Part shown: positions 11,323 through 57,482 of the stretch, one piece after another
Layout: every line of letters starts with the position of its first letter
Numbering within the stretch: the stretch's first letter is position 1
Source: Microthyrium microscopicum
Lineage: Eukaryota
Assembly: GCA_010405405.1 (NCBI GenBank)
Contig: MU004233.1
Location: 2,582,539-2,646,538, forward strand
Direction of reading: 5' to 3'
Length of the DNA: 64,000 nucleotides
Notes under the pieces: generated by a model
Seen by the model: only the letters and a program-made list of their open reading frames with translations
Told to the model about the DNA's origin: nothing
Databases searched by the model: none
Made by a program: the position numbers and the translations under genes

Positions 11323-11331
11323 TCAGGCTGA
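11323..11331. promoter_or_regulatory. TCAGGCTGA palindrome ~380 bp upstream of the HET gene
   Basis: Exact match in intergenic DNA; recurs upstream of other accessory genes. Confidence 0.6.
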
Positions 11332-11705
11332 GGCTGTGCCAGGTTGACAACAGCTGGCTGATCAACAAGGCAGGTTAGCTCGCCTGCAGGTATGTATGTA
11401 TGCCGCGGCGCAGCACCTTCTGAATCCTTTCGATGGCTATAACAACCTGATAGGCCCATAAATGTGAAGATCCCAAATACCGGCGTTCATCTTCACCCTG
11501 ATTACCAACCACTAAGCAATCAGACACGACAACTTTATTCCTCAAATTCAAAACGTCTCTCCAGCGTATATGAAAGGCAGTTATGCTCAAGAAAAAAGCT
11601 TCGGTTGATTTGGTACTGAATCTCGTCCTGCATCGTGCCAGATCAGAGGGCCAAAAGCTGTAGAACGTATGCTGACATTGGCAGGACAAGAACGCTTCTA
11701 GCAAG

Positions 11706-13674
11706 ATGATATCGATTGATAATAATATCGACCCGCCACCATCACTAAATCTTCCTGGGGAAATCGATGTCATCGGGCAAGAAGAAGCCGCTTGTACTTC
11801 TTGCCAAAACTTTGAGATTGATCTTTGGTGGCCTCCTTGGCATGAAATTGTCGGTGCCCGAGATCGAGGTTGTGCATATTGCTCGTTACTCCTAGATGTA
11901 GCATCATCATTTGGACTCTGGCCGGGGGATGTCGTTGAGGATTACAGAATATCCTGTTCAGTCCAATCGTGGCTTGATACCATAGTTCTGAGGCAGTCAG
12001 CCCAGTCAGATGCTGGTACACCAGTCGCAATATATCGCGCGAAGTCAGGTAAGTGGAAATCTGTTTTGTACTATCAGACTCGCTCACAAGATTATGGCAG
12101 ATCAAGAAGACTCGCATCTTCATAAACGATTACGGACACTTCCTGTCCTTGCGTCGCACTCCAATAGTGAAGATACGTATGTCTTCATTCAGAAACAGCT
12201 CGCGGAGTGTATTGAGTCTCACCCCGAATGCTCATCAAGAGGATCTGTTTCTCTGCCACTTAGAGTTCTGGACCTTTCGGCTGGACTCGATAGTATTAAG
12301 CTCGTCGTTGATCCACCGCGCTTAGGTGTTTTTGCAGCTCTATCCTACTGCTGGGGAGATATTGGAAAGCACCCGGACCGAATGCTCACGAAGGATTCGA
12401 TTACCGCCATGCAACAAAACATATCATGGACGAGTCTATTTCCGCTATTTAGAGATGCCGTCACTATAGCCACGAAGCTGAACATACCATATCTCTGGAT
12501 CGATTGCTTGTGCATAATTCAGGACGACTCCCAAGACTGGGAACTGGAGTCTTCCAAGATGGCCGACTACTATGGCAATGCATTAATTACCATCTCGGCC
12601 GACTGCAACATTAGTCCGGAGCAACCACTTCTTGCTATTCGAGACGAATGGTGGAGGGCAAGAACCTTTCTCTTGAAAGGCTCTGGGCAACACTTTTACG
12701 CTAGACGATTGCATAGTAGTCTGCGCAACAAATGGACACTGCATACCAATCCACTAGCTGCACGTGGTTGGGCGTGGCAAGAAAATTTGATATCACGTCG
12801 CGTTATTCACTATCTAGACAGCGAGGTGGTCTGGGAGTGTCGCAGATTATCTCGATCCGAGGATGGATTTCTAGACTCCAGCCAACTCTGGGGCCGTTAC
12901 ACACAAACGCCATATGATCTATGTCAAGCTTTCGCTGGGATGGCAACGTCCCCAGCCAAGCAGTGGCTCAAGTGTATTGAAACATTCTCGGGGCGATTGC
13001 TGACCTACGAGAAAGATCGACTTCCAGCTATCAGTGGTATAGCCAAAATAATGCACGAAAAGTTGGGCGCGGAATATCTTGCTGGTTTATGGCGGAGTTC
13101 TCTCATAGAAGGCATGATGTGGAATACGTTAAGTCTTTCGCGAGCCTACGTCCCGAACTCTAACCCCTCGTGGTCTTGGAGCTCTGTTGCAGGAAAAATA
13201 ACATACAATCGCTGGTCCTCCTTCGAACCTCATACTGAGGCGGTGGTTTTGGAGGCTGAGTGCTCCATATTGGGATTGAATCCGTTCGGCGAAGTCACAG
13301 GTGGATATTTGAAAATCCAATGCCTGTTCTCGGTTGGGACCTTGGAACCTCATAATGGACGCAGTTGGTTTGGACGTCTCCGGGGCAGTACCTCCGGCAG
13401 CATCATATTTGACTGTGCGCTTGAGGTAATCGAGCTGTGCAATCTGTGTGGCGAGGTGTCCGTTGGAAGGTCGACTGATCCTTCGTCAAAACTCTCTCGT
13501 CCTATCCGCGTTTTTTACATCATAATAGGCAAAGAGACTGATGGTGAAAGATGCTTTGGCCTACTCTTGGGGAAGTCTCCGATCGTGGATGGAGCATACA
13601 CACGGATTGGTTTCTTACATCACTTGAAGGAAAGCGAACATGACATGAGCATCCAGACTATAACAATAGTATGA
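11706..13674 (+). CDS. HET-domain (heterokaryon incompatibility, PF06985-type) protein; intron ~12049-12100
   Basis: LPLRVLDL, FAALSYCWG, FRDAVTI...YLWIDCLCIIQDD...ESSKMADYY, RGWAWQE, DRLPAISGIA, YLAGLW, PSWSWSS. N-terminal CxxC...CxxC exon. Confidence 0.93.
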
Positions 13675-14627
13675 ATGCTAAATGAAGAATTGTCAGTATT
13701 TATGATAGTCGAGTATCAGATTGAGCTATGGACCACAATCTGTAATTGATCCTGTCCTACTACACGCTCGGAAACAAGCTTGCCCGTGTCTGAAGCTCCT
13801 ACTTGTGCAGAATCTGAGATCCATAGATCAAGGTACCACTCTAAACGTCTACTCAATGAAGAAACACGGCACCACGTAGGTAATGTATCCATCTCGCTGC
13901 AAGGTGCCTTTGCAGTAGCATTCTTCGCTGGGGCTTGACGTCAAGATTGGGTTACAGCAGAGCGTAATCTCTCTGGAATAACGAGTAAGTTTTAACTCCA
14001 AATGCCTGTGGAGAACAGCTCAAAGGGTGTTAGATGCATGATGGCATCAACGACAGGTATCACTACAGCCCTTGCTTGACAGAGAAAATTCCTTCCGTAA
14101 TGTATCGAACTCGGCCATGGAGAATCATGAGCTTGTCATTCGATATACCCTCGATGTGCAGCAAGATCACTTATTTTGAGCAATGCTGATGGATTGCAAG
14201 AATGCGACTGGTTATAGTAACAATTGGGTTTCTACAGACTCCGAGAGATGACGATCGAAAGAATGCCAGGTTTGCTTTCCAAACGCTCGGAACTATTCTA
14301 GCTCTAGTCCATCCTATCTAATGATCTGACTATCAGAAGGTTGTCAGCTTGTGAAAGAATGATTGTGAAGAATAGCCCACTTACCAATGCAACTATGAAA
14401 AATCTGAATAAGTCATAAGTGAAAGTTCCAGAGTAATTCCCCGCAAAGCCCGATGAAAGAAGTTCCTTATCAGGTCAACCTCTCCTTCGCATGGACCAGT
14501 CAAATCAAAAATGCCATAGTCCCGAGTCACCGACACCCATCGATCATAGGAGTCGCCCATATTCAAATATGATGATAAACTTCAAGCGCCCCAGGTCGTG
14601 ACCAAGAGGCTTTCCTTTGTATTAAGT

Positions 14628-19923: not shown

Positions 19924-20462
19924 TGTGACGCGATGTTTGGTGTATGAAGAGAAGATAGAGGAATGATCATGGCGGCATGATGTGGGCGTTGAAAGGCGAT
20001 GTATGAATGTCGCGAAGAGAACACTTGTGTGAAAGATCAACGTCAATGAGGCTTGATGATGCAGGCGCATCACTGGTATTCGGTACAATGCAGAGCATAT
20101 TACGCTGTAGCTGTGCCAAGATCTGGTGTCTCTTTTAAGCGTGACTTATCTCTGCTAGTTGCTGCATTTGATGGCCTTCATCGGGCTAGGCGAACAGCGT
20201 AAATGTAGTTCTATATGAACAGAGTGCGCGAAATCCACTGACATACAGCTGCAGAATCCCCAAAGTTTCTTCTACGAAACATTTTCGGGCTTAATTTTTA
20301 CAGACAGAAGAGCGTTTCGTGAAAATCGGAAATCAAGATGAGGCTGAATCTTATCTTATCTTACTCAACTACCTAGGTACTCTCCATCTAAGATTTTAGA
20401 CTTCAACTCCAAAATTCTTTTTACAGACTTCCCCACCGAGCAATTATACTTCCTAATTCAAG

Positions 20463-21328: not shown

Positions 21329-21428
21329 CTGCTTCTCACATACCTTCAAGCAAGGTTTAACGACATTACGAACAACAAGATACCCAATGCATTTCTATTC
21401 ACACCAAAAGTACTTCGAAAAATGACGT

Positions 21429-22709
21429 CTATCCTTTGCGGAGATATTTCGCTGCTTGTGTCAAATAGTCCCCAACCTAATCCCTCGGTTAGCCTGGTAG
21501 CGAACCTTCGAGCAAAGAGAATCTCATTACCTTATGGAAGCAAGTAGTATTAGCCTTGGCATCTTTTACACTCTCTCCGATTGTATAGTCATAAGGCTGG
21601 CCGGTATGCCTATCGGTCGCTGCTATCTTCAAGGAATTGATGGTCTTCTGCTCCGAGTCTGGCAGTGTGACGACAAATCCAAGAAACTCATCCATCGCCT
21701 CACGACTAGGCCCGGCATCTTCACTTTGATCCGCCAACATCACCTGGCCAAGCTTCTGGATCTTCTCTATTGTGGCCGGCCGAACTCCTTTCTTCAGCTT
21801 ACTCTGGCTGAGTTGAAGCTGTCGGAGCTGTCGGCCAAGAGGATGAGCCAGGATTTTCTTGATGTCTGCTTGCGAGAATAGCTGCTTACTCAGAGGATTT
21901 CTCATCACACCACTGTTCACTTCCAACGCCTTGGAGAGCTCTTCCATATCCCACGCGTAGTTATCTTCCGTCACCATGAACCTTCCTCTCGGGATGTCCT
22001 CAACCCTGTCACCATACATCGTTTCGTCATTGGCGTATCGTTTGTTGAGTTGGTCACGTTCGAAATGGGCGAAAGCGGCTGCTATCTCCTTCTCCATGCT
22101 TTCCGGTAGCGCTGCCTCCAGGAGATGCATACGTTTGAGGACTCGCTGGCGTTTCTCATCTGTTGTTATGCCTTCATTTTGGCTGCTAGCCCACCCGTTT
22201 ACGTTCTCAAAGTCTTCGGCGATGAGCTCTTCTATCTGTCCTGGCGACTTCTTGATTGCTCTAGCAAGTTCCTGGACGGAGAGTGGTTGTGGCATGGGGA
22301 CAGCAACGCTGATATCGCCTCCACTGATGGCTTCCATTACGGATAGCATGTCTCCGAGCCCAGGATTATCGAAAGGACTACCACTAGACTGTCCATCAAG
22401 GTGCTCAGAGGTTGTATGTTCCATCTCGGAAAGGCCTCGAACTTCTTCCTTCAGGATCCTCGCTACCAGCATCAATTCTTTGTATCCAGCCTCTAGTGTC
22501 CTTTCAGCTTCGTTCCGCTGCTCCTCTGTCTCCAGTATCGCTGCACTTCGAGGGACTTGATGGGATTTGCTCGTAGTCTTCTGGGGCGGAGGCGACGCCA
22601 TCTTAGGTTGACGTCTACTCCCGGCGGCGCCTCTTCTCTTGAGATATCGATTTCCTATCGCATTATTTGGATCTAAACTCATCGACATCATTGCAGTTTC
22701 TCTCGCCAT
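21429..22709 (-). CDS. Fungal hypothetical protein with a degenerate U-box/RING-like segment; short last exon after an intron near 21477-21530; start may be 22601
   Basis: 406-aa ORF with YANDETMYGDRVEDIP...NYAWDMEEL...VMRNPLSKQLF. Final exon VGDYLTQAAKYLRKG*. Confidence 0.7.
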
Positions 22710-23184
22710 ATCTGATCAACTCGTTAGCACAATCGATGATGGGGATCAAGGATAACTATGGGTCGAATGTAAATGACATGTTCCCATAAGTGTGATATCT
22801 ATCATACGAGACTCTTTGTTATCGTATCCTTGAGTCAAAGCTTCTTTTCGTAATAAAGCGCAATGGGATATATACTGGCTGATGGGAGAGCATGATGCTC
22901 ACATACCTTGGTCTCCAGCCTCAACCCACCCCTCCAAAATCAGCTCGTGCAGAAAAATACTCGAAGGCTGACCTTCGAGCGCATTGTACAACTCCGTCAG
23001 TAAACCGTCGTCGTCCCGCATGCTTTCAGCCTTGTGGAGATTGCAACAATATTCTGCGTTCACAGCTTTGCTGGAATCAGAAATCAAGCCCCATTGCCGG
23101 TTTATCCATGCGCATATTATTTGCTATCAACCTGATTCACATACTATGGGGTATTTGCAGATGTTTCAAGTGCATTTGTATTGA

Positions 23185-23193
23185 TCAGGCTGA
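23185..23193. promoter_or_regulatory. TCAGGCTGA palindrome in the divergent promoter between the U-box-like gene and the PARP-like gene
   Basis: Exact match, ~310 bp upstream of 23498. Confidence 0.6.
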
Positions 23194-23497
23194 ACAGTGA
23201 GGCGGATTCTCCACATCGGGCTGCATATTCCACTAGACAATGGCTGCATGCCACGTCGAAAACAGCCTTGGGCCTTGATAGTGCCAATACTCGGTGAAAA
23301 GCATGGAAAAGCAAACTTAGGTTGGTATACGATGACTAACGAGTTATGACACTGTATTGAAATCAGCAGTTCACATGACGAGGCATACTCGAGGTTTGCT
23401 TGGTACATGATGTTTCTACCAAGCCTGGGTATACCAGGACTTGAGTTTCGATATACTTGTTCGAAGCATCATATCGTAGCTCCTGGCATGGGTCGAA

Positions 23498-26400
23498 ATG
23501 CCGTTCAAATCTTCGAGAATCTTTGCCTCTGTCAAGAATTCTTTGAACGTCGACAAAGTCAGAATACTATCAAGCTCATCCACTGCTTCGCTGGAACGAT
23601 GGATTCAAGATATCAGAATGGTGGCGGACAGTGTCCCTGGCTACTCACTGGATGCTACTTCAATCCAACAACAAACCTTGGACATGCTTCGAAATGCTAC
23701 AGACAGCTATTTGCTCAGCACCAAAAATCGATCAGACCAATTCTCTGCTCAGTTCGATAGCACATTGGATACCCTGGTCCAGGATTTTACTCTTCGATGG
23801 CCCTCGGACAGACTAATTGCCATTTTTGCCTGTCTTCACCTGTCTTCTGCTGGATTAGCGACGACACACATACTGTCTATACGAGCACTAGATGCTGAAC
23901 AGTACCTGACGTGTCTGCTCATATGCGACCAAATTCGACCAGCTTTCATACCACCGCGAGAAATACAGATTGCCAACAGCCTCAATCAAGTCATAAGAGC
24001 GAAATCCAGACATATCCATGAATTTGGATTGCTTGTGGAAAGGTTTCGGTTGATGGAAACGAGACACTGGCTGGACAGTGGCGTGGTAGAGCATCTCCTG
24101 GCAAGATACGACATCGCTGGGAGAATGTGGCATGAAATAAACGTGCTTCTCGAAAATAGGAGGCTACACACTCTCTATGGAGTCGTGGCTTGGAGACACA
24201 GTTTGCCGGCCGATAACGCTGCCATAATGTCAATAATCAATAGTTCCTTCCCACATCTCCCTTGGATCTTGACCTGGCGGCCACATGTTCAGCGAATCAA
24301 GCAGTGGGAAGAAGCGTCCTTTGCCATTGAGGATAGAAGGCGGCTGGAAAGGGTGTTCGACTTTGATGGCCCAGATGTCACATCATCTGGCCAGCAGTCG
24401 AAATTGAGTTTAGCAGCAAGAGGGAGCTACAAGCACGTTCCGGTGCAGCCAGAGACTCCAGAAACACATGAAAAGCTATTGCAGCTTCTCTCAGATGCCC
24501 AAAGAGCTGGTCAAGGGATGGTCAAAATTTTCATTCAGCTATGCGTGGAGAACTGCGCTGATGAGAAAGCCATGTCAATGGTTCGATTGGCTATAGAGAA
24601 TGGTGATAGTGACTTATGCGATGGCCTATCATTGATATACAATGCTCTCTACACTCAGAAAGGCTTGAGTAATCAGATTGGCGAACTCGCGAAGGCGTTA
24701 TCCACGGTAAAGAGTGGAGAGTATGCGGATACCTCTCTTATTCCACTGGAGCAAATCGTCCAACAGGTCGAGAGCTTATTAGACGCTGCTCAAACAACCT
24801 TTCGAGAACAACTCCAGAGTGGAACTGGAGAATTCGTAGGAATGCTGATTTCAGATCTCAAGCAAGCTGTGTTAAAGGCGGTCTGGCTTCATAAAAACAT
24901 TTCACCTCAACTGCTTGCCCGACTTGTGCAAATCCCCTCTGAAGATGTTCTAGAGGCTACATTCAAGCATCTGTATGATGCTGAAAGAACTGGTCAAGTG
25001 GCAGATGCCCGCTTTAAGGACTATTTGGCATCGACTTTAGGAGGCCAATCGGGGATGAGTGCCTCTGCTGGTCATCTTGTCTCTTTCCAAGAGATTCAAG
25101 TCGAGCTCGAATTCTGGAAAACCAACCGTAGCAGTACGAGAAGGGATCTCGCTAAAATCATTTCTGGGTTGGAAGACATACCTCAGGCCACGTACATTTC
25201 ATGTCTACCTGCGATCATTCAAGAAGACGACACTTTTATCGAAGAGATCAAGCACATCTTAGCATCGGAGAAGAAGGTCACTTGTTTCCAGTTCTCAAGG
25301 TATATAGCCCGACGACGTAGAAATGGACAGTTGCTCCACGATTGCTGGATTATGATTCTTGGTGTGCTTATCCAACAGCAAGGTCAAGACTGGCTGCCCC
25401 ATGCCGCTACTAGGATGGTTCTGGTTGAATGGCTGGGCTTTATCAAAGACATGCAATTCCTTCTAGGTCCCATACAATCTCAACTCTCGCTCTCTTGGCC
25501 GGGTCTGACTCCTGAGCGGCTCGATTGGTGGGGACATCTTTCGAAGCATGAATCAACGATTCAATTTCTCGTTGAACAGCCGAGGACCCATCGAAACATT
25601 CAATGGCTATATTTCCCATCTCGGCAAAATGAAATACAAGAATTGATAAACCTGGTGCAAAGCCACAAGACCATGCCTCCTACGCGGAAGATAGCTCTTT
25701 CTTATCTTGACATGGACGGCAACAACGTTGTCAATATCAACACGCTGCTCCGGTCATTCGACACGCTGTCTGATTTTCCACGAGCAGCCTTTGATAGAGT
25801 AGTACTCAGAGCTCAAAGTTCAGGCATCTGGCCTAAGAATGCTGTTGGTGCTTTACTTCGTTGCTGGGCTCGAAGTGCCGAGCTTGATCAGTCTGCTTGC
25901 TCGGCATTTCAGGCCTTTGGTGTTGTCCTCCAAATATCGCGATCAACGCACTCGCGGACCCACGGCAATCAAGTGGCCTCGCAAGAGATTGAAAGAGAAT
26001 GTAAAGAAGTTTTGCAAGATGCAGAGAAACTTGAGCGTTTACGATGGCAGCTTCAGAGAAAGCGGCCAAAGAGAGTGGCGGCTCTGCTCAAAAGCCTAGA
26101 TATCATGGATTCTATGCATGGTAGACACTCAGATCTGCCAGAAAGCTTGATTGACGCGGTCGAGGTATTGAGTGATAATGAATACGAGATTACATTTCCT
26201 CTGACTGACCTCGGAGAGATTCAGCTCTATGGTCGGGGTATAACGAAGAAGTCTCGCATATTGAGGCTACGTATTCGATTGGATGGCAAGCCAGCATTTT
26301 GCGTTCATACATCCGCTGAAACCGACTCCAGCTCCAATCAACACTACTACTGGGACGTGTTTGATGATTATACAAATGGTCCTGCTTGTTCACAGCGGCC

Positions 26401-27403
26401 CAGCCTGCTCTCCTACTATTTGAGCCAGACGATGATCCATTTGCTGAAAAGATCGAATCCGTCTCTACAAACGATTCACAAAACTGCCCAGGAACTGATC
26501 GACAATAACCCCTCAACCTGTTTAGTTTGTGCCAAGGATTTGAAAGTCACACTTTGGAAACCATCTACCTGCTCAAAAGCATGCTCAAAAGCCTTCCGTA
26601 GAGCTCCTCTAGAAGTACGACTTCACAATCTTCTCGTTGACCCATCGACCCTCGATCTTCTTTTAACCAGCCTATATCTTGCTGTCAGCGACCCCAATCA
26701 CGTCCGCTTCAATCTGCTACAAGACTGCCCCATCCCTACTACCCAGCTCGTGTCGCTCATCGACTCCTTTCCCGCCCTCTCGGTCCTCGCGGCCGCCAAA
26801 GATCTCCCAAGCGCTCTCTACGGTACCGATGGTCTCGGCTCCCAACGCGAGCTGCTACTCTCTTGGATTTGCATAGCCTTTCGTGGTTTCATGATGAAAG
26901 CTTCTGACCGCTACAAGATCCATGGTATGGCCAACACTGAGCAATTCCTCATGCTCAACAGCCATCATGAGCGCGAGTCTTTATTCGCCGCTCAATCTCC
27001 CAATAGCCCCGGTGGTGTCGTCTTCCATGGCACGCAGCCTGCTCGCTTGTTCTCTGTACTTACCCAGGGTCTCAAAGTCATGAGCCACACTGCTCCAGTC
27101 AATGGTGCGAGTTATGGCGCTGGTATATATTGTGCAGACGAGCCGGCAACTTCAAATGCTTACGCGGGTGCGATCGTGACGAGCTGGAAGCACAGTGCGC
27201 TGAATGGGATGCGGGTGATGCTGGGGTGCGAGTTGGCGGGTCATGCGTTGTCGTCGAGCTTTCATGTTATCCCAGTAGAAGACCGGTTATTGGTTCGCTA
27301 TGTGTTTTTGCTATCGGCCACTTTTGTCCCGCCAGCGAGAGCGCATGTTGAACCGGCCATGGCGTCAGCATACTCAACGTTGAGGACAGGCTTAGCAAGT
27401 TGA
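23498..27403 (+). CDS. Large PARP-family (PARP6/8/16-like) ADP-ribosyltransferase, 1301 aa, intronless ORF
   Basis: C-terminal VFHGT...LTQGLKVMS...NGASYGAGIYCADEPATSNAYAG...VMLGCELAG...FHVIP...LLVRYVFL, preceded by CLVC...CSKAC and PLEVRL...DP...DLLL. Confidence 0.88.
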   Translation: MPFKSSRIFASVKNSLNVDKVRILSSSSTASLERWIQDIRMVADSVPGYSLDATSIQQQTLDMLRNATDSYLLSTKNRSDQFSAQFDSTLDTLVQDFTLRWPSDRLIAIFACLHLSSAGLATTHILSIRALDAEQYLTCLLICDQIRPAFIPPREIQIANSLNQVIRAKSRHIHEFGLLVERFRLMETRHWLDSGVVEHLLARYDIAGRMWHEINVLLENRRLHTLYGVVAWRHSLPADNAAIMSIINSSFPHLPWILTWRPHVQRIKQWEEASFAIEDRRRLERVFDFDGPDVTSSGQQSKLSLAARGSYKHVPVQPETPETHEKLLQLLSDAQRAGQGMVKIFIQLCVENCADEKAMSMVRLAIENGDSDLCDGLSLIYNALYTQKGLSNQIGELAKALSTVKSGEYADTSLIPLEQIVQQVESLLDAAQTTFREQLQSGTGEFVGMLISDLKQAVLKAVWLHKNISPQLLARLVQIPSEDVLEATFKHLYDAERTGQVADARFKDYLASTLGGQSGMSASAGHLVSFQEIQVELEFWKTNRSSTRRDLAKIISGLEDIPQATYISCLPAIIQEDDTFIEEIKHILASEKKVTCFQFSRYIARRRRNGQLLHDCWIMILGVLIQQQGQDWLPHAATRMVLVEWLGFIKDMQFLLGPIQSQLSLSWPGLTPERLDWWGHLSKHESTIQFLVEQPRTHRNIQWLYFPSRQNEIQELINLVQSHKTMPPTRKIALSYLDMDGNNVVNINTLLRSFDTLSDFPRAAFDRVVLRAQSSGIWPKNAVGALLRCWARSAELDQSACSAFQAFGVVLQISRSTHSRTHGNQVASQEIERECKEVLQDAEKLERLRWQLQRKRPKRVAALLKSLDIMDSMHGRHSDLPESLIDAVEVLSDNEYEITFPLTDLGEIQLYGRGITKKSRILRLRIRLDGKPAFCVHTSAETDSSSNQHYYWDVFDDYTNGPACSQRPSLLSYYLSQTMIHLLKRSNPSLQTIHKTAQELIDNNPSTCLVCAKDLKVTLWKPSTCSKACSKAFRRAPLEVRLHNLLVDPSTLDLLLTSLYLAVSDPNHVRFNLLQDCPIPTTQLVSLIDSFPALSVLAAAKDLPSALYGTDGLGSQRELLLSWICIAFRGFMMKASDRYKIHGMANTEQFLMLNSHHERESLFAAQSPNSPGGVVFHGTQPARLFSVLTQGLKVMSHTAPVNGASYGAGIYCADEPATSNAYAGAIVTSWKHSALNGMRVMLGCELAGHALSSSFHVIPVEDRLLVRYVFLLSATFVPPARAHVEPAMASAYSTLRTGLAS

Positions 27404-27798
27404 TCAACATAGACACTGCAGTCAATGATAAGCCTTGCCCCGGTGGAGACAGCTATCTGCAACTGCGAGAGCGTGAAAGTAACACCATATTTCCAGTGCA
27501 TCTCATGGCTCTCATCGCACTTGATGGCTACCATAGCATACACTTCGATTTGTCGAGGGCTCGTGATGTCTCTATATTGCCCCATAATCTGACGTGGGCC
27601 AGAAATTATCATCGCGTCTTCTGGCTCACCTAATACTTCATGACACACAGCAATTACTATGAGAATCTGTCTAAATGGCCTGTGCAGAGCAAGATGGTCT
27701 CCATACTGTAATGTCAAACTGGCTATTGTCAAAAGGGCATGATTATTTTCAGAAATGATGTTGAGGAAACATCACAAAGTGAAAGGTGCTTTTCATTT

Positions 27799-29100
27799 TC
27801 AAATGATTACTGAAATATCGTCTTCTGTCGGAGCATCTTGTTCTTCATATCTATACACAGGAACCCAACCTTTGTAGAGAAGTTGTAATCGTTCGAGCTC
27901 TTTCTTCATGGTCTTCCGCGTAAACTTGGGCGTATTATCAATCGAGTTTTTCTGGCCCAGCAACGCTGGAATTTTGAAGAACTCTTCCAGTGATGGAGCT
28001 GTTTTATTTCCCTGCGCGGTAGTACTTTGCATTTGCGTCCCAATGCGATTCCGCATTTCTTCAAGGGCCTCCCTATGCTTCTGGGCCAGAGGGTCTTCCT
28101 CTTTTTGGCGAGGTGGAATCAGCAAGCGAACCATGATGGTGAATGCGACACTAAATAGCTGATATGTGACCTCTCTGGCCCGGTAAATCTGGGTCAGATT
28201 TACAGGATTGCGGTTGATTTGTCCCACAATGACAACTTCGCAGAACGAGCGTATGCATAGCAGAGGGATGACAAACAAACAACGGGCCATGTACTGTAGA
28301 AGCCAAGTCAGCAATATATATCCAACTTGACTCAAGGTTCTCACCGTGATATAGTATTCATCATGTTGATTCTCGGCAGAACCAATGTAGCTTTTGTAAT
28401 CAGACGAAACATAAATCATAGCTATCGTCGTCCAGCAGAACTCCACCGCAGTGAAAGTAACGTCAAATGCGCTTCTAGCATTCGCAATAGATGCAATAGC
28501 TTTCAGGTCAGAAAATGAAAGCCAAGTAAGAGATAAAGACAAGAGCTCAATCCACTGATAGAGTCCTAGAAATAACATGATAAAGGCAATTATCGTCCCA
28601 GGGAGGAATGTAGGAGCGTCAATATCCATATACCGGTATCTTCCTATCAGTCTCCAGATTCCCCATAACATAAAGACGTCGGATAGGACTTTGAAAATCG
28701 ACAATATGGAGTCTGCAAGCATATAACTGGCAGTCACTGTCTGAGCGAGCTCTCGAACTAAACAATCCGTCCAGATCCACAGTGACCAGCTAATCCGTTG
28801 TAAGCAATCAGACACAGTGAGTACGCAATAAACAGTGCTCACATCGACAGTAATATGAGGCCAGTGTCAAGCGTCCATATTTCCTTCCAGTGCTTTGTTC
28901 GAAAGGTGAAATACACATAAGTGAAGGTAATTTGACACGTCGCAGCCAGGGAGTTGAATATCAACATTCCGATCCCTGGACGTATCGTCCCCATTGGTAC
29001 TTGGTATAGTCCCTTCATTTGACGGTAGGCCGAGGCACTTTGGGTGGTTGTTGAAAATGTCAAGATTCTAAATACAACTCTAGCAATAGCTACTACGAGC
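27799..29100 (-). CDS. Multi-pass membrane protein of unknown function; introns ~28800-28842 and ~28294-28345; start uncertain
   Basis: ORFs 28839-29063 and 27799-28842 linked by gtgagc...cag. About 6-7 hydrophobic segments and a charged C-terminal tail. Confidence 0.7.
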
Positions 29101-29387
29101 TACATGATCGATTAAAAGTCGGGCAATGTCGTCCTTCGTAATTTTGACTTCTTGTAATCATTACTTAAGGCGATACGAAGAGGTCCGTAGAAGTTTGACC
29201 TACCTAATGCTTTGTGTTCAACTAAAAGCGGGCGGCAGATTGGTGAAACGTGTAAAAGAGCTCGACTTGAGGCCGGTCCCTTCCTTTTCAAGTGATCGTA
29301 TCATTAGCCGGAAAGACTGAACTTGTAATGCATGTCTTAGTACATGCATAATCATTGAAAGTGGGGATATGCACTATAGTTCTTGGT

Positions 29388-29396
29388 TCAGCCTGA
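29388..29396. promoter_or_regulatory. TCAGCCTGA palindrome upstream of the minus-strand membrane protein gene
   Basis: Exact match in intergenic DNA. Confidence 0.6.
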
Positions 29397-29985
29397 CGAC
29401 AAGTCGTCCGGCCGGGTTATGGACTAAGTGAAGCACAGCTGAATTCTGCCTCACTATTTCTGCATCCAGCTTTGAATATCCTAGCTCTGGAACAAGAACA
29501 GTCTACTCATTTGCGTCATCTTTTCGCAGACTGCTTTTACAAGACCAACTTCCAGCGGGATCAGAAGATTGAGCCTGTTTAATGCCAGAACTTAATTTCC
29601 CCCCAATGTGGTTTCTATGTTGCAAAAAACATGTCAGCAGGGCCAAACTCACAGACAGGAAATTCTACGTAGTTCATTCAACGGGCCGACGAAGTAATTG
29701 GGACGCTTACATGAAGTATTATGTCTACCATATGCTACGATCTACCACCTGGTACCGCCTTTCCCACTAAAGTCATGAAGGTACACATAGTACATCGAAT
29801 ACGATGGAATTTGTGGCATCTTTGGTTTAGCAACACTGGTGGTGGATATCAGCGACCTTGATGAGGTTGTGTCGTCTGTTTACTTAGCAAGATATCACCC
29901 AAGCTGGTATCGTTCTCATTGGGGATAGAATTTTTGCCTTTTGTTTTTGCTGGCGGTTCCATGTAAGAAAGAACCACCTTGCTTC

Positions 29986-31492
29986 TCATAGTACAGGATA
30001 CACCTCACAAGGTACGATTGCTCTCTTAGAGTTGAGATCCAGCCGACCATCTCCAACTTTCTCAAGGCCAGGAAGTACAACCAAGTCCACAGTGACGATA
30101 CTGCCTTTGTTTGTGTTCCCATCTTCACAGTCTTGGTATTCGTCTCCAATTTGTACTGACTGATCTGGCTGCGGAATAATTAGTTGGAGCCTAGCTGGAT
30201 GAATGCCGAATTGTAAAGCAATCTGAAAGGCCAAGGCAGTAATATGATCGACCTCTTCGCGCAAGGTCTCTCGCAGGTTACCTCCCGAGAGCTGAACGAC
30301 TCCAGAGAGGAATCGCATAATCTTTTCAGAAGCATCGGATCTATTTTTCTCACTGAGACGACGTATACCAAAGTAGCCAGAGCTATTCTTATTACTGATT
30401 CTCGAGTTGATGCGTTGGAAGAGAGCAGCCCGCCACGTATTTGCTGTTGTCTCTCGACTGTATGCTGATAGATCAGTTGCGCTTCCATTGGCTGCTTAAA
30501 GGACAATTAGTATATAGCTGCAGAATGAGCGGACTTGTGCCTTACTCGGTGTGTTGTTACCATCTAGAAGATTTTGGAATGTCTCATGAATAGTGAAAAC
30601 TTGCCGCTTTGCTTCTCCAGTGCCAAAGGCGCCAAAGCCAAAAGGCGCTGAGAAGAAGTGCTCGACTAATATTGACCAGATGCGTCCTCTCAAGAAGAAC
30701 CTTGATCGCCCTCCTTCAACGCGACCAAGGAAGCCAGTGGGATCTAACTCGTTACCGAGCCTCTGACCATGGCGAATTAACAACTCAGAATGCTGTGCGG
30801 CAGTAAGTTCCTCAACTTGACGTTGCAACTCGCGAAATTGGAGTTTTAGCTTGTCATCAGGCCAATAGTCGTTATCCTTTTGGTTGACTAATAGTTGTGA
30901 GATCAGATTGTCGACTTCGTTCTTGTGATCACGATCCTTTGTTACGATGGTACTTTTATGGTTTGCATCCATCTTCATGCGTGTACTTTCATGATTGCTC
31001 TTCATTGACGATACTATCGCGGAATGCTCTTGTGACATGTCGGAGACTTGTTTGTCGTGATCTTTTTTGGCTTTTCTAGTTTCGCTATCGTGTTTCTTCT
31101 GGATGGCATCCTGCAGTTGATTAGTGCATAATCCAAGCAGCTGTCGTGACATTGGAGTATATATGCAGAGAGTAGCCTGCAACAACGAAACTTACCGCAT
31201 TGCGGATGTCAGTATTCAACTGATCAATTTTTTGCTTCGCTTCTTTGATAGTCCGATCTCTGGAAGATAGCTCATCTGCTAGCCTACGCTTTTCTCTCAA
31301 TAATGCTCGAGTGAAGTCGAACAAATCCTCTAGTAGATCCCCAGATAATCCACCCTGGATCGGGTATACACCGTCCTGGTTTCGGTGCATGAACTTGCTG
31401 ATATTGTTGCCATAACGATTATGGACGCTATCAGCTGCATTGCGAGCAATCATTTGCTCATCGCGACTGAGAAACATATCCCTGAATACCAT
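29986..31492 (-). CDS. Coiled-coil protein with a C-terminal beta-rich domain (putative GrpE-like head); introns ~31141-31195 and ~30496-30545
   Basis: Three ORFs joined by canonical splice sites. N-terminal coiled coil, WPDDKLKLQFRELQRQVE, C-terminal IALQFG...RLQLIIP...VTVDLVVLPGLEKVGDG...RAIVPCEVY. Confidence 0.8.
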
Positions 31493-31681
31493 AGTCAGAT
31501 CTTTTCGGCGATGAGATCCTCAAAAAAGTTCCAAAGCGATTTCGACTTTAGAGTCTGAATCTTGGGGGTCTATCAGACGTCAAGTCAAACTTTGATGAAG
31601 AGCTGGCTGCAAGGCGTTTTCAAGCTCAGGACTAAGGGGTTATGGCCGCCTATTGAAATAAAATACAAACCGGTATAAACC

Positions 31682-31792
31682 TCAGCCTGATCATTTCTTG
31701 GATTATGCATGTTATGATGCAGATCAGTACTTAGCGTACTTGGCTACTTGCGACGTGGCTCAGCCTTCTCCAATGTCAGGAAGTCAGCCTGA
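31682..31792. promoter_or_regulatory. Two TCAGCCTGA palindromes (31682-31690, 31784-31792) in the 461-bp bidirectional promoter
   Basis: Exact matches between the ATGs at 31492 (-) and 31954 (+). Confidence 0.65.
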
Positions 31793-31953
31793 TGAAGTTC
31801 AGAAGAAGCAAAGTACTTTTGACCCCAGTAGGAACCTTAGAGTGCATAGTGCAGGTCCTATCGCTACTGGTCATTCGTCCTGACTCAAGATAAATGACTG
31901 AAGCTGTGTCGAGCATCACTTTACCTCAACTAACTTTCGAACCTTTCGTATCT

Positions 31954-34381
31954 ATGGCCGATATTGATGCACAAACGGACAATGGGCCACGGATTGTACT
32001 AGGAATCGACTATGGAACAACGTTCACGGGTTTGTAACTGATAAACATGGCTCTGTTATGTACTAACAATGTCATCAGGTCTTGCGTGGATGCAGACCAC
32101 AGGACATGACAGTCCAGGTATAAGCAACATCAACACATACCGATCATGGCCTGCAAAGGATGCTCCAAAAGTGCCATCAGCAAAGTCATATTCCAAGGCG
32201 GAAGGAAGGTCTAGGAATTGGGGATATGATATTGATGATAAGGCTATCGTGATGCGCGTAAGTGTTGAGTGTACTGTCCATGAAGCGCGATGGGAGACAT
32301 CGAGTGTCAGGCGTGATGAGCATTGCTCGCTGACAGCCTTCCCCTGAATCTTTGCTGACAGCCTTCCCAGTGGACCAAACTTGAGCTTGAGCCTAAAGAA
32401 CATCTCCGCGAGGAATTGGCTATTCTCCAAGAACTCGTAAAAGGATTGGAACTTGTCAAAAACATAAGGACGAATCCTTTGTCAGGCGCAACGGCCGACG
32501 TTCCAGTACACGTATCTAAAAGCTCCGAAGATATCGTTCGAGATTATCTGCGTGATGTAGCCAGAGAGTGGTATCAACACGTACGAGCTCAGGGACAGTA
32601 CATCTTCAATCGAGTCCCACTGGATATAGTTATCACTCACCCAGCAGTAAGTTACAACCTAATCTTTTGATCAATCCTCTAATGTCACAAAGTCTTGGTC
32701 ATACGAAGCACGAAACAAGACGTATAGAGCAGTGCGCTCTGCGTTTTCGAAGGTCATGTTTCCTACTTTGCGAAATGTTTCGTTTGTATCGGAGCCAGAG
32801 GCCAGTGCTTTGACTCTGGTTCAAGACCTGCTCTCAAAAGATCGAAACTCTTTCATACCCGGAGAGAGCTTTGTCCTTTGCGACGCTGGTGGTGGCACAG
32901 TTGTAAGTCTCCCGTGACAGGATTGCGGTTCTGCATATCTAATGTCTTGATAGGATCTGGTTTCCTACAGAATTGACCGAATTGAGCCGTTGAAACTCAC
33001 CCGAGTGGGTACAATTTCAGGCTCCAAAGGTAAGATGGCCTTGTGGAAACTCACATTTCTTGACGACACTCACTCTGGTCTTGAGTTTATACTAACGAAT
33101 TCGATCTACAGTGGGGGCCATCTTCGTCGATCGGGCGTTCCTGGAATGGGCAGATGTTAGACTCAAAAACCTAAATCTCGCTCCAAGTGATTACGGAAAC
33201 GGCGGACACTTTGCGATCACACCGGCCGGGAAAGCATTCCTTGACAGATTCGAAAGAATCAAGCATGCTTTCAATGGGACAGGAGGTGGAGAGGTTCAGC
33301 TTCCTCGCGGCACTGAAGTGGAGGAAGCATATCAAGAGAGTTGTGCTAGCGGCGTGCTCACTTTGACTAAGTACGTATTTTATACTTGCAACTTTGCTAT
33401 GCTGACGCATGTTTAGAGAGGATGTTAGCGGAATGTTCGAAAAGAGTGTAAGAGGCACTGTAGAATTGATTGCTCGACAAATTGTTCTCGTAGAACAAGA
33501 GGAGTATGATGGGGAGAGGTGTGATGTCAAGGTGAGTTTGAATGCCCCAAGCAGGTCGCCCGGTATGCTAATTAATTCGAAGAACATATTCCTGTCAGGT
33601 GGTTTTGCAGAAAGCCCGTATTTATACCAGCAGGCCAAAGACTTTGCTGACACAAAAGCAATCGATTTACAGAGAGCTGATGATTGGTAAGTCGGCCTAG
33701 ACTTAGCACACAGGTTTGGACTAACCAAGACTTGTAGCTGGAGCGCTGTCGTTAGAGGAGCAGTACTCAAAGGTATGGGCGTAGGGGCAGATCTTCCAGA
33801 ACGAGTCAAAGAATGCCCAAGGCACTACGGCATATGTGTTTCAGATGTATTCGCGGCTTGGAAATACGATGGTACAGATACTGTGAAGAACACCTATAAC
33901 GCCTCGCAGATGGTACACCATCAGGTCTCGTGGCTTATCAAGAAAGGTGACGTGATACTTCCAGACAAAGCTATCAAAGCCAAGCTGCGAGTGGTTTGTC
34001 AGTTTACAGACAGTCACGTCAAGGCCGGCGAGACTGTTCGAGTTATATTTGCCGCCACCAACCAAGCTAGTCCATCTAGGAATTTGCCTGATCTTCCAAT
34101 CGGTAAGTTGTCAAATCCAGAATGAGGTTGAACTAACAAAATCTGTAGATAAGAATGAGGTGGTTTCTTTAGACGTTGACCTCAGTAAGCTTCCTAGAAA
34201 CAAAGAGTGTAAAATGGAGAGAGCAGAAGGAAGAGGAAAGTACTACCAGGTGAATCTCGTTGCAGAGCTAGAAGTCAGACATCGAGTGACGGCGAGATTG
34301 ATGCTGGGAGATACAGTATTGGCTAAGCATACTACAACTCTGAATGGGAGTAATCAGGGCACCACTAGAGTAGCTCCTTAA
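31954..34381 (+). CDS. Atypical Hsp70 (HSPA12-like actin-fold ATPase), ~8-9 introns
   Basis: IVLGIDYGTTFTG (phosphate 1), KVPS, WTKLEL, IVITHPA, SEPEASA, VLCDAGGGTVDLVSY (phosphate 2), CGAIFVDRAF, IFLSGGFAESPYL (adenosine), SWSAVVRGAVLKG. No EEVD tail. Confidence 0.92.
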
Positions 34382-34425
34382 ATATCTATAACTGAAATAT
34401 ACTCTCTTTATGACTAATTAGAATG

Positions 34426-35569
34426 TTAGATGTTCTGGACCTTGACTACGACTTTACCCTTTGCACGTTGACTGGCCATCCGTTCGTATGCCTACATCAA
34501 TTTAAATGGTTAGATCTGGTAAGAATGCGGTGACTCGAGGCGAGGTTGCTTACCTGTAGAGCATCTTCCATCTCGTATACTTTGTCAACCGCAACGATCA
34601 ACTTGTCTTCTTCAATAAGCTTCGCTAGGTACTGTCTCGTCTTCTGATCTGGGTTTGTTTGTTGGAAGATGTAAGTTCTAGGTGTTCCACCCAGAAGCCG
34701 CGGCCATAGACTATTTTTTGCTGCACACCATAAGCCCTTTACTATTCCTTCCATGGCTCCAACATTGACGAATTTTCCATCTGCTTTGAGAAAGCCCGGA
34801 CTATTCTGGAAGAGCTCATCTGTGCCTATCGTATCCAGAATAACATCGAACGGCTCTGAACCATATTTTTCGGAGAGATAGGTATGCAGCGGAGCATGCA
34901 CACGGTAGTCGATGACCTGGATTTTCGAAGTAAGCAATAATTTACAAGGATAAAGGCGCGAAAACCAACCTCATCAGCGCCTAGCTTCTTTACCAGATCA
35001 AAGTTTTCCCCTGCTCCAGTTGCTACAACATATGCTCCCTCAGCCTTTGCAATCTGAAGCGCTAGAGTACCCACTCCGCCACTGCCTCCATTGACAAACA
35101 CCCTACTCCCTTTCTTGATCCCTGCAGTCCGTACCATCAGTGCTGCGGTTTGCCCATTCCCATCTAGTGATGCTGCCTCTGCAAATCCAAATGCTGTTGT
35201 TTGCGGCATCTGTAGCACATGAATGGCAGGCAGCATGACGTACTCGGCTAGTGTGCCTGTGCCATGGAGGAGAAATGTTGAGATTGGAACTGAGCCAAAC
35301 GCTCTAGTGCCGGGGGTAAATTCTGCTGGCGCATCAGGTCCAGCGAGTTCGATGATGCCAGAAAAGTCAAGTTCGGGGATGTATGGACGTGACAGCAGAG
35401 GGAGCGAGGGAAAGACCTTGATGGCGTGTGAGATGCCTGGAGTTAGCGCAGAGTGTGATACTTTGATGAGCAGATTGGATCTAGTAGGAGACGAAGGCTT
35501 CGACAGGTCCGTTTCCAATTTGAGAACCACTGATGGCGGTCCGCGAGTACGAAATGTCCAGGCGCGCAT
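34426..35569 (-). CDS. MDR-superfamily NAD(P)H quinone oxidoreductase / zinc-independent ADH-like protein; 2 introns
   Basis: PELDFSGIIE, GTLAEYV, VFVNGGSGGVGTLALQIAK, LGADE|VIDY, FDVILDTIG, last exon AYERMASQRAKGKVVVKV. Confidence 0.92.
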
Positions 35570-36360
35570 TGTGATGGAAATGATGCGAAGCGACTTTCAA
35601 AAACTCGTGGAGCTCACTGTGACCCAAATCCTCAAAGATTGGTATATTTTATTGAAGGCTGTAACATAAACATCAGATGGCTACTCTACTACTTCTTGTC
35701 AACTTCTCCGACCTGTCCGACTTGTCCGAGTTGCCCAATCGTTGAAGCATCCACCCCCTGAAATTCTAACATGTGGCGGTGCGGTTTGCTCAGCCACAGG
35801 AGATTTTCCATTCATCGGGCCCAGCTCATGAACTCCTAAGTTCTTAAGAGTTCTGTCTGTCAAAGTAAACTTCTATGTAGTACTCACTCCTGAACTTAGA
35901 GTGAAAATAGTTTGTCTATTCCACTCTATGATAGCAGTTGATGCAATCGTAAGCTGAAGAACACTCACATGTTCGAAACAGAAAGCACGATGTGCTCCAT
36001 CGTACTATAATCAAAGAACTGATTAGCTGCTAGACATTGTATTGCTTTGGGAACCGCTCTATTGCGACATCATACAAAATATCAATTCCAAGTGCATCAA
36101 CTGGCCAACCCTCGCAAGGTTGACTTCCCCACATGCAGCCCAAGCCAGCCTGATGCATATCCGCCTTGTTTGCTAGAGTGCCAAATGAGCTAAAGTAAGC
36201 TTCAATGCAGCTGTTGTCTCGGTCAGTAACCTCGAGTTCAATTGGAGATATTAATGGCCAAAGTATGGGGCAATTGGTCCTCATGCTACAAACCGTTTGC
36301 GGTGGAAAATCAAGGATAGAAATGACTAAAGACTCTTCCCACTCTTCGCTAGCGTTCTTT

Positions 36361-36407
36361 TCAGCCTGATGGCATGCATGCGATATCGTTCTTTAGATTC
36401 AGCCTGA
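36361..36407. promoter_or_regulatory. Two TCAGCCTGA palindromes (36361-36369, 36399-36407), each preceded by cgttcttt
   Basis: Exact matches ~150-190 bp upstream of ATG 36557. One-mismatch copy CCAGCCTGA at 36145. Confidence 0.65.
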
Positions 36408-36556
36408 CGAAAGTATCGAAAACATTGGAGTCCCCGCATGCCACGAACTGAATGCCGTGGCAGTATGTCTTTGACTCCTTGGGTCACTAAGCGTGCTCAA
36501 ATACAATACGGGAAACTTGATTGAGCAGACTGTATTCTTCCTCTTGCTCATGCATC

Positions 36557-37499
36557 ATGGAAGCGTGGCACTTCTTCAATTATACAGTTCAAAGCCCACT
36601 CATCTCCCTCCTCTATACCACCGAGCGTTGGAATCTAGCACCATTTCCTGCCAACCTTGCAGCAACTTCCTCTCACTTTAGCAATCTTTCGACTCCAAAC
36701 GGCTCCATCCAGGCCTGGACACTTCCCTACTCGCCATCTGAGCAGTGGTCTACTCTTCCCGAAGGTTGGACAGCCGACGGCCCAGACCAGAACATAAACA
36801 GCGACCCCCTCACCATCACCAACACCACATACATTTGCTCAACGCCTCACAACAACAGCTGCCTCATCCTAATCGAAGGCATCGGAGCCAACACAATCGG
36901 ACCAACCCACAGCTCCATAACATCACTCACCCACGGCCTCGGATTCCTCTTCGCCCTCATCTTCGCCACCCTCTTCACGATCATGGGCTCCAAAAACAGC
37001 AAACTACCACAACCAGAAATGGCACACCACGAAGCCATCCGCACCAACTACACACCCGCCCCAGTGGCCAGACACGTCTCCACAGCACCACCACCCCATC
37101 AACAACAACCCCCCCCTCCCAAACGCCAGTCCACCATCCAACAACCCCAAGAGTACAAAGGCGTCTCACCCAACTCCCTAACCTCCGAAATCGCCCACTG
37201 CGCCAGCCTACTCCGCGAACTATATGCCCTAGATCTCAGGTAAGCCTCCATTCCCCCGTCTTCAAAATCACAACAAATCGTTAACCAACACCAGCATATG
37301 GGGCATGCAGAACTGTGTCCGCGACGAAATCCCCCGCCGGCAAACAATGGAGCGCAAAGCCAACGCGCTATTTCGCGAAATCCGGCGCATGACCGGAGAA
37401 TGGCGCGCAAGCGTTGGATCACGCTGGAGTATGGAGGATCGGCAGGCGGTGGAGACGATTTGGCGGGCGGTGCATGAGCATCCAGAGACGAGATATTGA
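36557..37499 (+). CDS. Single-pass membrane protein with a Pro/Gln linker and helical C-terminal domain; intron 37240-37294
   Basis: MEAWHFFNY..., TM GLGFLFALIFATLFTIMG, spliced LRELYALDLS-IWGMQNC...KANALFREI...W...W. Confidence 0.75.
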
Positions 37500-55278: not shown

Positions 55279-56319
55279 TTTGGTCGATTATTTTGATGCT
55301 GGTGGTGGTGTTAATGGAGGAATTGATACAGCTGTGGCTGGGGGAGACAATGTGACGATATGGTTCAGTAGTCACTGAGCAAGAGAGAAGACCAAAGGGT
55401 TCAAGTAGCCCATTAATCAGTTCTATTGAAGTCTATGTACAATATTACAAAGTCCAGCCATTATCTTTTTATAATATACACGGCCACAAGGGCAGAGGGC
55501 TACGGTGTATTGTGGAAAAGTTAGTTGTTGTCAAGACCTACGATTGTGGTGCTCGCGTGCGGCAACAAGTACCTCTGAGGACCCATTGGATGGATAGAGG
55601 TATATAACGTGCAGTTAGTTGTAGTTGGAGGTGTGTTATGTTGTGGATTGATGAGGTGGTGTTGCGGGCTACAATTTCGAGAGCGGCTTGTGGTTTGTGG
55701 TGCCAAAGGCTAAGTCAGGGCTTGGGGAGGTCAGGATGTGTGTTGTGATGAACTTTTTGCTCAGAGTCTGAGCAATCCGCGAGGGGTTTGAGTAGGTACT
55801 TATTGTGAAGGTTGTTTGGTTATTGTCATGAGGCTTGATCGTATGTTTCTGAAAAGAAAGGGAGGTTTAACGGGACGGGTTGACATGGTATGAAGATCCT
55901 ATTTCGTTTCTATAATTTACGAATTATAGGTTGAGCCATTGTAGTATATCTTAGGAGACTTACTATACGCTGGGAGATGTGGTTCTTGCTATATGAATTA
56001 GTGCAATCTTGATATCTTTCCCAGATTTACTTTCCAGTCTAAGTTGTAATTGTTTGTTTGTTCTTCCTCCACAGACACTGAAGGCCGGGGTGGCCTATAA
56101 TTAGCACAAGCTCTGTCTGTGACTCATATTGAATCCTTCTTCCTTGCTTGTATCAGGGTCTAGAGATGAATCGGGATCTAGTGTTTGTAGGAACCGCCTT
56201 CTTTACACAAGCGTAGGTGGTTCAGTAAGTTTGTGGTTTCTGCGTTCTATTTTTCAAGGCTTCAGCCTTTCTGAGCAAGCCCTACTCTACGCTAATAATA
56301 ACTTTACAAAGCTTCTATC

Positions 56320-57133
56320 ATGGATAAAGTCATCTTAACTCCACGCTTGGAGCTCATCCTACAACAGTCAATAGATATTGAAAGCGATGAGGTGAAAGAT
56401 TACCACTTACTTCGCTGCGATCCAGGCGCAACTTCATGGAGGTGAGTACATCCTGTCCTTATGCGATGGAACATGTGTAAACTTATCGACTTTTCCCGTA
56501 CTCGGCTAATCAATGCCATCATTTAGTTTTGGAGGCGTAGCTAAAGACATTCAAGAATCTCAGCAAGTCCTCATCAAAAATCACTTCCCAATCAAAGACC
56601 ACGACAACGACGTCCGCCAGTACCGCGCATCATACAACGTCTATCTACGCGGTGATACGACCACCAAGGCTCCACAAGGCCGCGATTCATCACGCTTCAT
56701 CGGTAGGGTCGGAGCTCTTGAAGGCCGCGTCTATGGCCCACCATTCTCACCCGACCTCGTCATTCCAGACGATATCCTGGCAAATGAGAAGGCCCTCAAG
56801 CTTGAGGTAGGTTATTCTTTTCTAGAAAAATCTTGGGGTCACGGATACGCATCAGAGGCATTGAAGGCATTGATGGCAGCATATCAGAATGCCAACTCGC
56901 TCTGGAATCCACCGTATGAGAAGGTGTACTTTATGGGTATCCTTGGGCCAGCGAATGTTCGCTCTTCGAGAGTTCTGGAGAAGGTTGGATTCAGACTCAA
57001 AGGGATTCATAGCTGGGATGGACCAAAGCATTTTCTTGGTGGTGCGATGCAGCCGAATGAGGTTGCTGTGTACTCCTTGGATCCGTCTTTGGGCAAACGT
57101 GAAGAATCACAAGCCGGTGATGAGCGAGTGTAA
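56320..57133 (+). CDS. GNAT-family (RimJ/RimL-like) N-acetyltransferase; intron ~56442-56526
   Basis: ILTPRLEL N-terminus, EVGYSFLEKSWGHGYASEAL (acetyl-CoA motif A), NVRSSRVLEKVGF. Confidence 0.9.
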
Positions 57134-57473
57134 CATTGATGGTGTTACCGGTCATATCTTTCCTAATACTAGATTTTCGTTTTGCGTTCGGGAGGAGAAT
57201 GACTTGTCATTGAGATATTACCTGGACAATGAAATCGATCAATATCTCCCTAATTCCGATAAGAATACGGAACAAAGGACTTATGGTAGTACTATTCGTG
57301 ATTGACCGGTCGGACTATGTCCTGAAGTACAGCTATTGGGTCACCCTCTTTAAGGCAACAATTTGCTTCGAAGCACCAATCCACCTCCATGAGCTTATGT
57401 AGTACTGCGCCATCTCATCCTCGCTCCCGAACATACAAGAGTTGGGAACCAATTTGCAGTGCTGGCAGGCTTA

Positions 57474-57482
57474 TCAGCCTGA
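57474..57482. promoter_or_regulatory. TCAGCCTGA palindrome with no obvious target gene
   Basis: Exact match between the GNAT 3' end and ECM29. Confidence 0.35.

Follow-up and report, generated by a model that had tools for sequence, protein, structure and literature searches.

A recurrent 9-bp palindrome in non-coding DNA of Microthyrium microscopicum, a candidate transcription factor binding site

Occurrence of the palindrome in the window

A 64-kb stretch of the Microthyrium microscopicum genome (contig MU004233.1 of assembly GCA_010405405.1, positions 2,582,539 to 2,646,538; hereafter the window) was analyzed for the occurrence of a palindromic 9-mer, TCAGSCTGA, where S is G or C. A Pfam scan of 134 open reading frames (ORFs) of at least 90 codons, plus spliced exons and two full proteins, gave a gene map that consists of an eisosome gene, ATG5, a HET gene, CDC6, Erv26/SVP26, BUD23, an unknown 408-codon ORF, a PARP-like gene, unknown genes, a Zn-ADH-like gene, a TBC gene, TERT, a RhoGEF gene, a GNAT gene, and ECM29. 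Eight exact copies of the palindrome and no others were found in the window, as seen in Table 1. All eight are exactly where an earlier note, made from the letters of this DNA, had placed them; that note took the palindrome to mark the promoters of accessory genes. The copies at 11323 and 23185 are G-centered (TCAGGCTGA) and those at 29388, 31682, 31784, 36361, 36399, and 57474 are C-centered (TCAGCCTGA). Each form is the reverse complement of the other and, thus, the palindrome is one 9-mer present on both strands rather than a degenerate pattern. The constraint at the center is for G:C, not A:T. Forms with a central A or T were found twice (39419 and 48840), each time within coding sequence.

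Table 1. Exact copies of the palindrome, additional half-sites, and genes of the surrounding block in the window
Feature	Position	Strand	Context
Exact copy, TCAGGCTGA	11323..11331		~290 bp past the ATG5 stop; 375 or 679 bp before the HET ATG (11706 or 12010)
Exact copy, TCAGGCTGA	23185..23193		Divergent region between the 408-codon ORF (minus) and the PARP-like gene; 305 bp before the ATG at 23498; in RNA contig
Exact copy, TCAGCCTGA	29388..29396		370 bp before the gene B ATG (29018, minus); in exon 29204-29614
Exact copy	31682..31690		401-bp divergent promoter of gene A (ATG 31492, minus) and the Hsp70-like gene (ATG 31894, plus); RNA-contig gap
Exact copy	31784..31792		Same gene A / Hsp70-like promoter; 102 bp before the Hsp70-like ATG; RNA-contig gap
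Exact copy	36361..36369		182 bp before the ATG (36551) of the small single-pass membrane protein gene; upstream of the intron-bearing ADH-like leader; in RNA contig
Exact copy	36399..36407		38 bp from the copy at 36361; in RNA contig
Exact copy	57474..57482		~340 bp past the GNAT ORF; 916 bp before the ECM29 ATG (58398)
Half-site AGGCTGA	11249..11255	+	76 bp from the copy at 11323
Half-site AGGCTGA, within TGAGGCTGA	20341..20347	+	SVP26/BUD23 divergent promoter
Half-site AGGCTGA	22965..22971	+	Upstream of the PARP-like gene
Half-site AGGCTGA	23026..23032	-	Upstream of the PARP-like gene
Half-site AGGCTGA	31760..31766	-	Flanked by the exact copies at 31682 and 31784 in the gene A / Hsp70-like promoter
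Half-site AGGCTGA	56262..56268	-	248 bp before the GNAT ORF
Lineage-restricted gene block	21492..37281		Six of the eight copies; 408-codon ORF (-), PARP-like (+), gene B (-), gene A (-), Hsp70-like (+), Zn-ADH-like (-), small membrane protein (+)
Gene A	ATG 31492	-	456 codons, coiled-coil front; rebuilt from RNA joints
Gene B	ATG 29018	-	371 codons, multi-pass membrane protein; rebuilt from RNA joints
Hsp70-like gene	ATG 31894	+	Ten exons, 650 codons; rebuilt from RNA joints

Dinucleotide shuffles gave an expectation of 0.75 copies, and none of 100 shuffles attained eight. The over-representation claimed earlier, when about 0.5 copies were expected in 64 kb, therefore stands. The raw count over the whole window is less exceptional than that arithmetic implied, since three unrelated 9-mers attain seven copies, spread over coding and non-coding DNA. 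Outside the AT-rich left end, TCAGSCTGA is the most frequent 9-mer of the whole window. Within the non-coding DNA that is not AT-rich (~12.9 kb) it is the sole outlier, with eight copies compared to at most four for the next unrelated 9-mers. Markov chains of orders 1 to 4 were trained on this same DNA, copies of the palindrome included, and any 9-mer with eight copies was seen in 0 of 300 simulations per order (0 of 1200 in total). The word is also symmetric at eight of its nine positions; a random 9-mer has a probability of 1/256 of such symmetry.

The left end of the window (1-5500) is very AT-rich, with a GC content of 0.22 in its first 4 kb compared to 0.45-0.51 elsewhere. It holds the AT-rich 9-mers that are repeated most often in the window and looks like a degraded repeat of the kind left by repeat-induced point mutation.

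Placement relative to coding sequence and start codons

All eight copies lie outside the coding sequence backed by Pfam or spliced RNA and do not overlap it at any point, as the earlier note had held. With about 16.6 kb of non-coding and 42.0 kb of coding DNA as the base of the test, the chance of this placement is 4e-5, or 4e-4 if the in-frame TGA contained in the word is allowed for. Three copies (11323, 23185, and 36361) are inside unsupported stop-to-stop ORFs of 100-120 codons that have no Pfam match, and the dicodon coding score has little power for the short ORFs over 11323 and 36361.

The nearest downstream ATG is 102-375 bp away for six copies. For the copy near HET it is 375 or 679 bp away depending on which ATG is chosen, and for the last copy it is that of ECM29, at 916 bp. 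The exact-copy scan also agreed with the earlier observation that no copy is upstream of ATG5, CDC6, SVP26/BUD23, the TBC gene, TERT, or the RhoGEF gene.

Membership in a dispersed repeat had been named as an observation that would speak against a regulatory site. The flanks of the copies (±200 bp) were compared using blastn-short and, overlapping windows aside, no match was longer than 13 bp. The flanks are unrelated, so TCAGSCTGA is not part of a dispersed repeat or the end of a miniature inverted-repeat transposable element.

The gene block that carries most copies

The copies are concentrated in a 15-kb, lineage-restricted gene block (Table 1). Each of the four 5' intergenic regions of this block (22.7-36.6 kb) holds at least one exact copy, six copies in all, and three of the four are divergent promoters. 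By contrast, none of the three convergent 3' regions has a copy. The block makes up 22% of the non-coding DNA yet carries six of the eight copies (p = 0.002, for a block that was defined after the fact). When upstream regions were divided by gene class, a copy was present in five of seven accessory and one of six core regions, which is not a significant difference (Fisher p = 0.10).

The "accessory" label itself is fair for the genes of the block, as the PARP-like protein (23498-27400, 1301 residues) is nearly an orphan. A search of 5.8 billion proteins gave two matches among 7995 scored candidates: its own protein and, as the sole homologue, a hypothetical protein of Sporothrix eucalyptigena with 28% identity. 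The match of the PARP-like protein to the PARP catalytic profile is confined to a short stretch (positions 47-102 of 199). For the Hsp70-like gene, the public protein is an "actin-like ATPase domain-containing protein" of M. microscopicum, for which the full-protein scan gave no Pfam match. This protein contains GIDYGTT and DAGGGT, which we take to be Hsp70/actin-fold motifs. A search with one exon of the gene recovered, besides the gene's own protein, a single relative (43%) from a contig of 2189 bp.

Elsewhere in the window, at 48568-53994, a 758-codon low-complexity, Ser/Pro-rich ORF precedes the RhoGEF ORF in the same orientation; the two probably form one long RhoGEF gene, with the 758-codon ORF as its N-terminal part.

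Copies in promoters and in transcribed leaders

Transcription was assessed with spliced RNA contigs identical to the window (1 differing letter in 5392); two further sequencing runs came from the same organism and had a depth of 2-3. The copies at 31682 and 31784 and the half-site at 31760 are in the sole gap of the RNA contigs, whose extent (about 31527-31880) we estimated using bin depths. The ends of the divergent gene A and Hsp70-like transcripts are 92-257 bp away from these sites, a classic position for an upstream element. The four other copies in the RNA-covered stretch (23185, 29388, 36361, and 36399) are inside RNA contigs, one of them in a spliced leader exon. Promoter marking, as claimed in the earlier note, is therefore clear only for the gene A / Hsp70-like promoter, as four of the six covered copies are transcribed.

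Three spliced minus-strand introns were found in non-coding leaders: two upstream of the gene B ATG (29150-29204 and 29614-29711) and one upstream of the ADH-like gene (36005-36075). The first two flank the exon that contains the copy at 29388, placing this copy in a transcribed leader, either of gene B or in read-through from gene A. Either gene B has a leader that extends into the 3' end of gene A, or read-through transcripts are common to both genes. The third intron shows that an ADH-like leader begins near the pair of copies at 36361 and 36399.

The transcribed copies raise another possible explanation, which is that the element acts in RNA, as UCAGGCUGA in 5' leaders, where it would be read by an RNA-binding protein. 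Four of the six covered copies being transcribed, with one in a spliced leader, is consistent with this. So is the G-centered form standing in the sense of the gene in two tandem contexts (HET and gene B), which are among few informative cases. However, the copies at 31682 and 31784 are in the RNA-contig gap and the copy at 57474 is antisense to ECM29. Also, the symmetry of the word would have no role in RNA, as a stem of 4 bp cannot form around a loop of 1 nt. We consider an RNA element very improbable.

Half-sites and related words

The 7-mer AGGCTGA was found 20 times in the window, 14 times in non-coding and six times in coding DNA, the latter at chance density. Six of the non-coding copies are not part of a palindrome (p = 0.017 for six extras). 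Most of these are beside full sites (11249; 22965 and 23026; 31760), and of the two others, one belongs to the SVP26/BUD23 promoter and one precedes GNAT. The shorter GGCTGA, one of which is contained in every copy of TCAGSCTGA, has a density of 1.27 per kb in non-coding compared to 0.41 per kb in coding DNA. It is preceded by TCA in eight of its 21 non-coding occurrences (p = 6e-10).

A different word, CATGGAGA(A), occurs seven times in the window. Four of these occurrences are non-coding (11207, 14116, 16516, and 16690), around HET, an unknown gene at 15 kb, and CDC6, and the word may be a second, weaker upstream word.

Comparison with other ascomycete DNA

A set of 80 ascomycete metagenome loci (L001-L080; 798 kb) obtained through a BUD23 scan, at 54-75% identity, was used as an outgroup. 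These loci are too distant for promoter alignment and served as a control for composition, as an outgroup, and for synteny. TCAGSCTGA occurs in them 10 times, which is the chance level (it ranks 82nd among the 512 palindromes with this layout), and nine of the 10 copies are inside ORFs of at least 100 codons. Four of these nine are TCAGGCTGA at one conserved coding position of SVP26 (L009, 1320; L072, 2912; L073, 6827; L075, 9043), which is a coding coincidence and not a promoter site. When the same crude mask was applied to both sets, five copies per 12.1 kb were counted outside ORFs in the window and one per 174 kb in the outgroup, about 70-fold lower. The enrichment therefore belongs to this genome or region and not to ascomycete intergenic DNA in general.

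The divergent SVP26-BUD23 pair is kept in 45 of the 80 loci. No other gene of the window was found within 10 kb of BUD23 in these loci at E ≤ 1e-8. The half-site of the SVP26/BUD23 promoter is not conserved, since AGGCTGA was found four times in 41 kb of outgroup DNA where 5.0 were expected.

Interpretation

The over-representation of TCAGSCTGA, its non-coding placement, its symmetry, the lack of a repeat around it, and its presence in all 5' and no 3' intergenic regions of the block fit the binding site of a dimeric DNA-binding protein. We favor this reading with a probability of roughly 0.55. TCAGSCTGA would be a cis-regulatory site bound by a sequence-specific protein as a symmetric dimer, with each subunit contacting one GGCTGA-type half. 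The sites would serve a subset of genes, from positions in 5' leaders or further upstream and chiefly in the 5' intergenic regions of the block, whose genes would then answer to one factor. Judging by the architecture of the site, the best candidate family is that of the Zn2Cys6 proteins of the XlnR/AraR kind, with TCAGSCTGA as the all-G version of the XlnR palindrome. The dimeric factor proposed in the earlier note gained support from the statistics and the positions, including the eight symmetric positions, the non-coding placement, and the 5' regions; the binding protein, its dimeric state, its family, and the co-regulation are what we infer from this pattern. No transcription factor or DNA-binding domain was found by Pfam in the 134 ORFs, smaller exons being outside that scan; nor did the scan reveal a Starship captain or recombinase domain in the window.

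Several observations weigh against this reading. One-mismatch variants of the word are not enriched (15 compared to ~16 expected in the window), a sharpness that is uncommon among factor sites. An octamer, CGTTCTTT, precedes the copies at both 36361 and 36399 and, thus, this pair may be one local duplication. The copy at 57474 has no clear target gene, and the four transcribed copies show that the word is not upstream of every transcript. In addition, a metagenome scan with ECM29 found no close relative among 239 pattern matches, and the differences from the known XlnR site described below count on the same side.

The first two of these observations could be explained if the word had no function and was a statistical tail, or a by-product of local duplication or of an old short repeat with decayed flanks; the choice of the word after the fact and the three unrelated 9-mers with seven copies would agree with this as well. 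What stands against it is that no simulated 9-mer reached eight copies in non-coding DNA, and that the words with seven copies are in both coding and non-coding DNA while TCAGSCTGA is non-coding in eight of eight cases. A top word with symmetry of prior probability 1/256 and flanks unrelated over ±200 bp also argue for a function. We consider the absence of one unlikely.

That TCAGSCTGA is one candidate transcription factor binding motif is well supported by its distribution, and such a motif is a common kind of finding. The feature is real but of an ordinary kind. If the favored reading is correct, it provides a defined 9-bp site for listing a regulon genome-wide and a bait for the factor in a little-studied leaf-litter dothideomycete. 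It would also mean that the architecture of the XlnR palindrome, with a changed half-site, is used at genes unrelated to the breakdown of plant cell walls. A stronger claim, in which one switch controls the HET, PARP-like, and Hsp70-like genes, would be relevant to fungal immunity. The co-regulation of these three genes, and the non-self or cell-death response suggested in the earlier note as its occasion, are speculation drawn solely from the identity of neighboring genes. A more specific version, in which a lineage-specific factor with XlnR-like recognition, such as a paralogue fixed on GGCTGA, controls orphan and non-self-type genes (HET, PARP-like, Hsp70-like ATPase, and membrane proteins), appears to us quite doubtful. 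It would amount to a transcriptional program for fungal incompatibility or defense genes with a defined cis element, which is not known to have been described.

Comparison with known binding sites

No published description of TCAGSCTGA as a fungal motif was found in the literature searched. The earlier note could not assign the word to a known factor; a near match has now been found in the dimer site of XlnR. According to excerpts of three papers, the site that Aspergillus oryzae XlnR occupies as a dimer in the promoters of xylanase genes is TTAG(G/C)CTAA, with the core TAGSCTA (PMC6323846 and PMC8180590, both citing Ishikawa et al. 2018, and PMC8928461). The same excerpts give GGCT(A/G)A as the canonical half-site and describe nanomolar affinity for GGCTGA fragments (PMC6323846, PMC8180590, PMC8928461). 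In the dothideomycete Aureobasidium, deletion of GGCTGA abolished XlnR-dependent activation, as stated in an excerpt of PMC12969433. TCAGSCTGA is likewise a 9-bp inverted repeat around a central G/C and is identical to TTAGSCTAA at seven of nine positions. The two positions that differ are a mirror pair, at which the XlnR half-site as excerpted accepts A or G.

Various differences speak against XlnR itself. Only the all-G form is present here, since neither TTAGSCTAA nor the mixed TYAGSCTRA forms occur in the window, and GGCTAA is at chance, with six occurrences in ~16.5 kb of non-coding DNA (0.36 per kb). A. oryzae XlnR prefers GGCTAA about 10-fold in gel shifts, according to the excerpt of PMC6323846. 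Eight copies in 64 kb is a high density for a pathway regulator. Furthermore, no glycoside hydrolase, sugar transporter, or pentose-pathway family was found by Pfam in the 134 ORFs, the spliced exons, or the two full proteins, and the only enzyme beside a site is that of the Zn-ADH-like gene, of the ADH_zinc_N_2 type. Since the canonical forms are either missing or no more frequent than chance, and no neighbor is a xylanolytic, cellulolytic, or pentose gene, we do not file these genes as an XlnR target set. In its architecture, TCAGSCTGA nevertheless would, with slightly better than even odds, work like an XlnR-type dimer site. A sequence matching CGGNTAAW, the published monomer site of XlnR/AraR, is present at 29303-29310, at a distance of 84 bp from the copy at 29388; such sequences occur three times in non-coding DNA, a number near chance.

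The missing XlnR forms and the non-xylanolytic neighbors are also what would be seen with a dimeric factor of another kind, e.g., a bZIP or bHLH protein reading CAG and CTG halves one base apart, as in the E-box CAGCTG with an inserted base. A precedent is the plant group I bZIP SWIZ, whose motif from DNA affinity purification sequencing is given in an excerpt of PMC11106548 as (A/C)CAGNCTG(T/G), an E-box variant, and has the same CAG-N-CTG core with a one-base spacer. However, this precedent comes from a plant, and the flanks of its excerpted motif are (A/C)...(T/G), whereas here they are T...A in eight of eight copies and the center is only G or C. The spacer-free form, TCAGCTGA, does not occur in the window. 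AGGCTGA has six extra copies beyond the palindromes compared to two for AGCCTGA, which favors a unit that reads GGCTGA over a pure CAG half-site. Such a factor is possible, though we give it considerably less weight than a protein of the XlnR/AraR kind. Crz1 (GAGGCTG-type), AP-1/Maf, HSF, PDRE, and Rpn4 sites were set aside for lack of fit.

A pathway-specific palindrome of a fungal gene cluster is known in the AflR site, TCGN5CGA, which is found in the promoters of the aflatoxin cluster. The block described here differs from such a cluster in that it has no recognizable biosynthetic enzymes and that two copies of the palindrome are outside it. The likeness to the AflR type is in the distribution: every 5' intergenic region of a contiguous block has a short palindrome, and the 3' regions have none.

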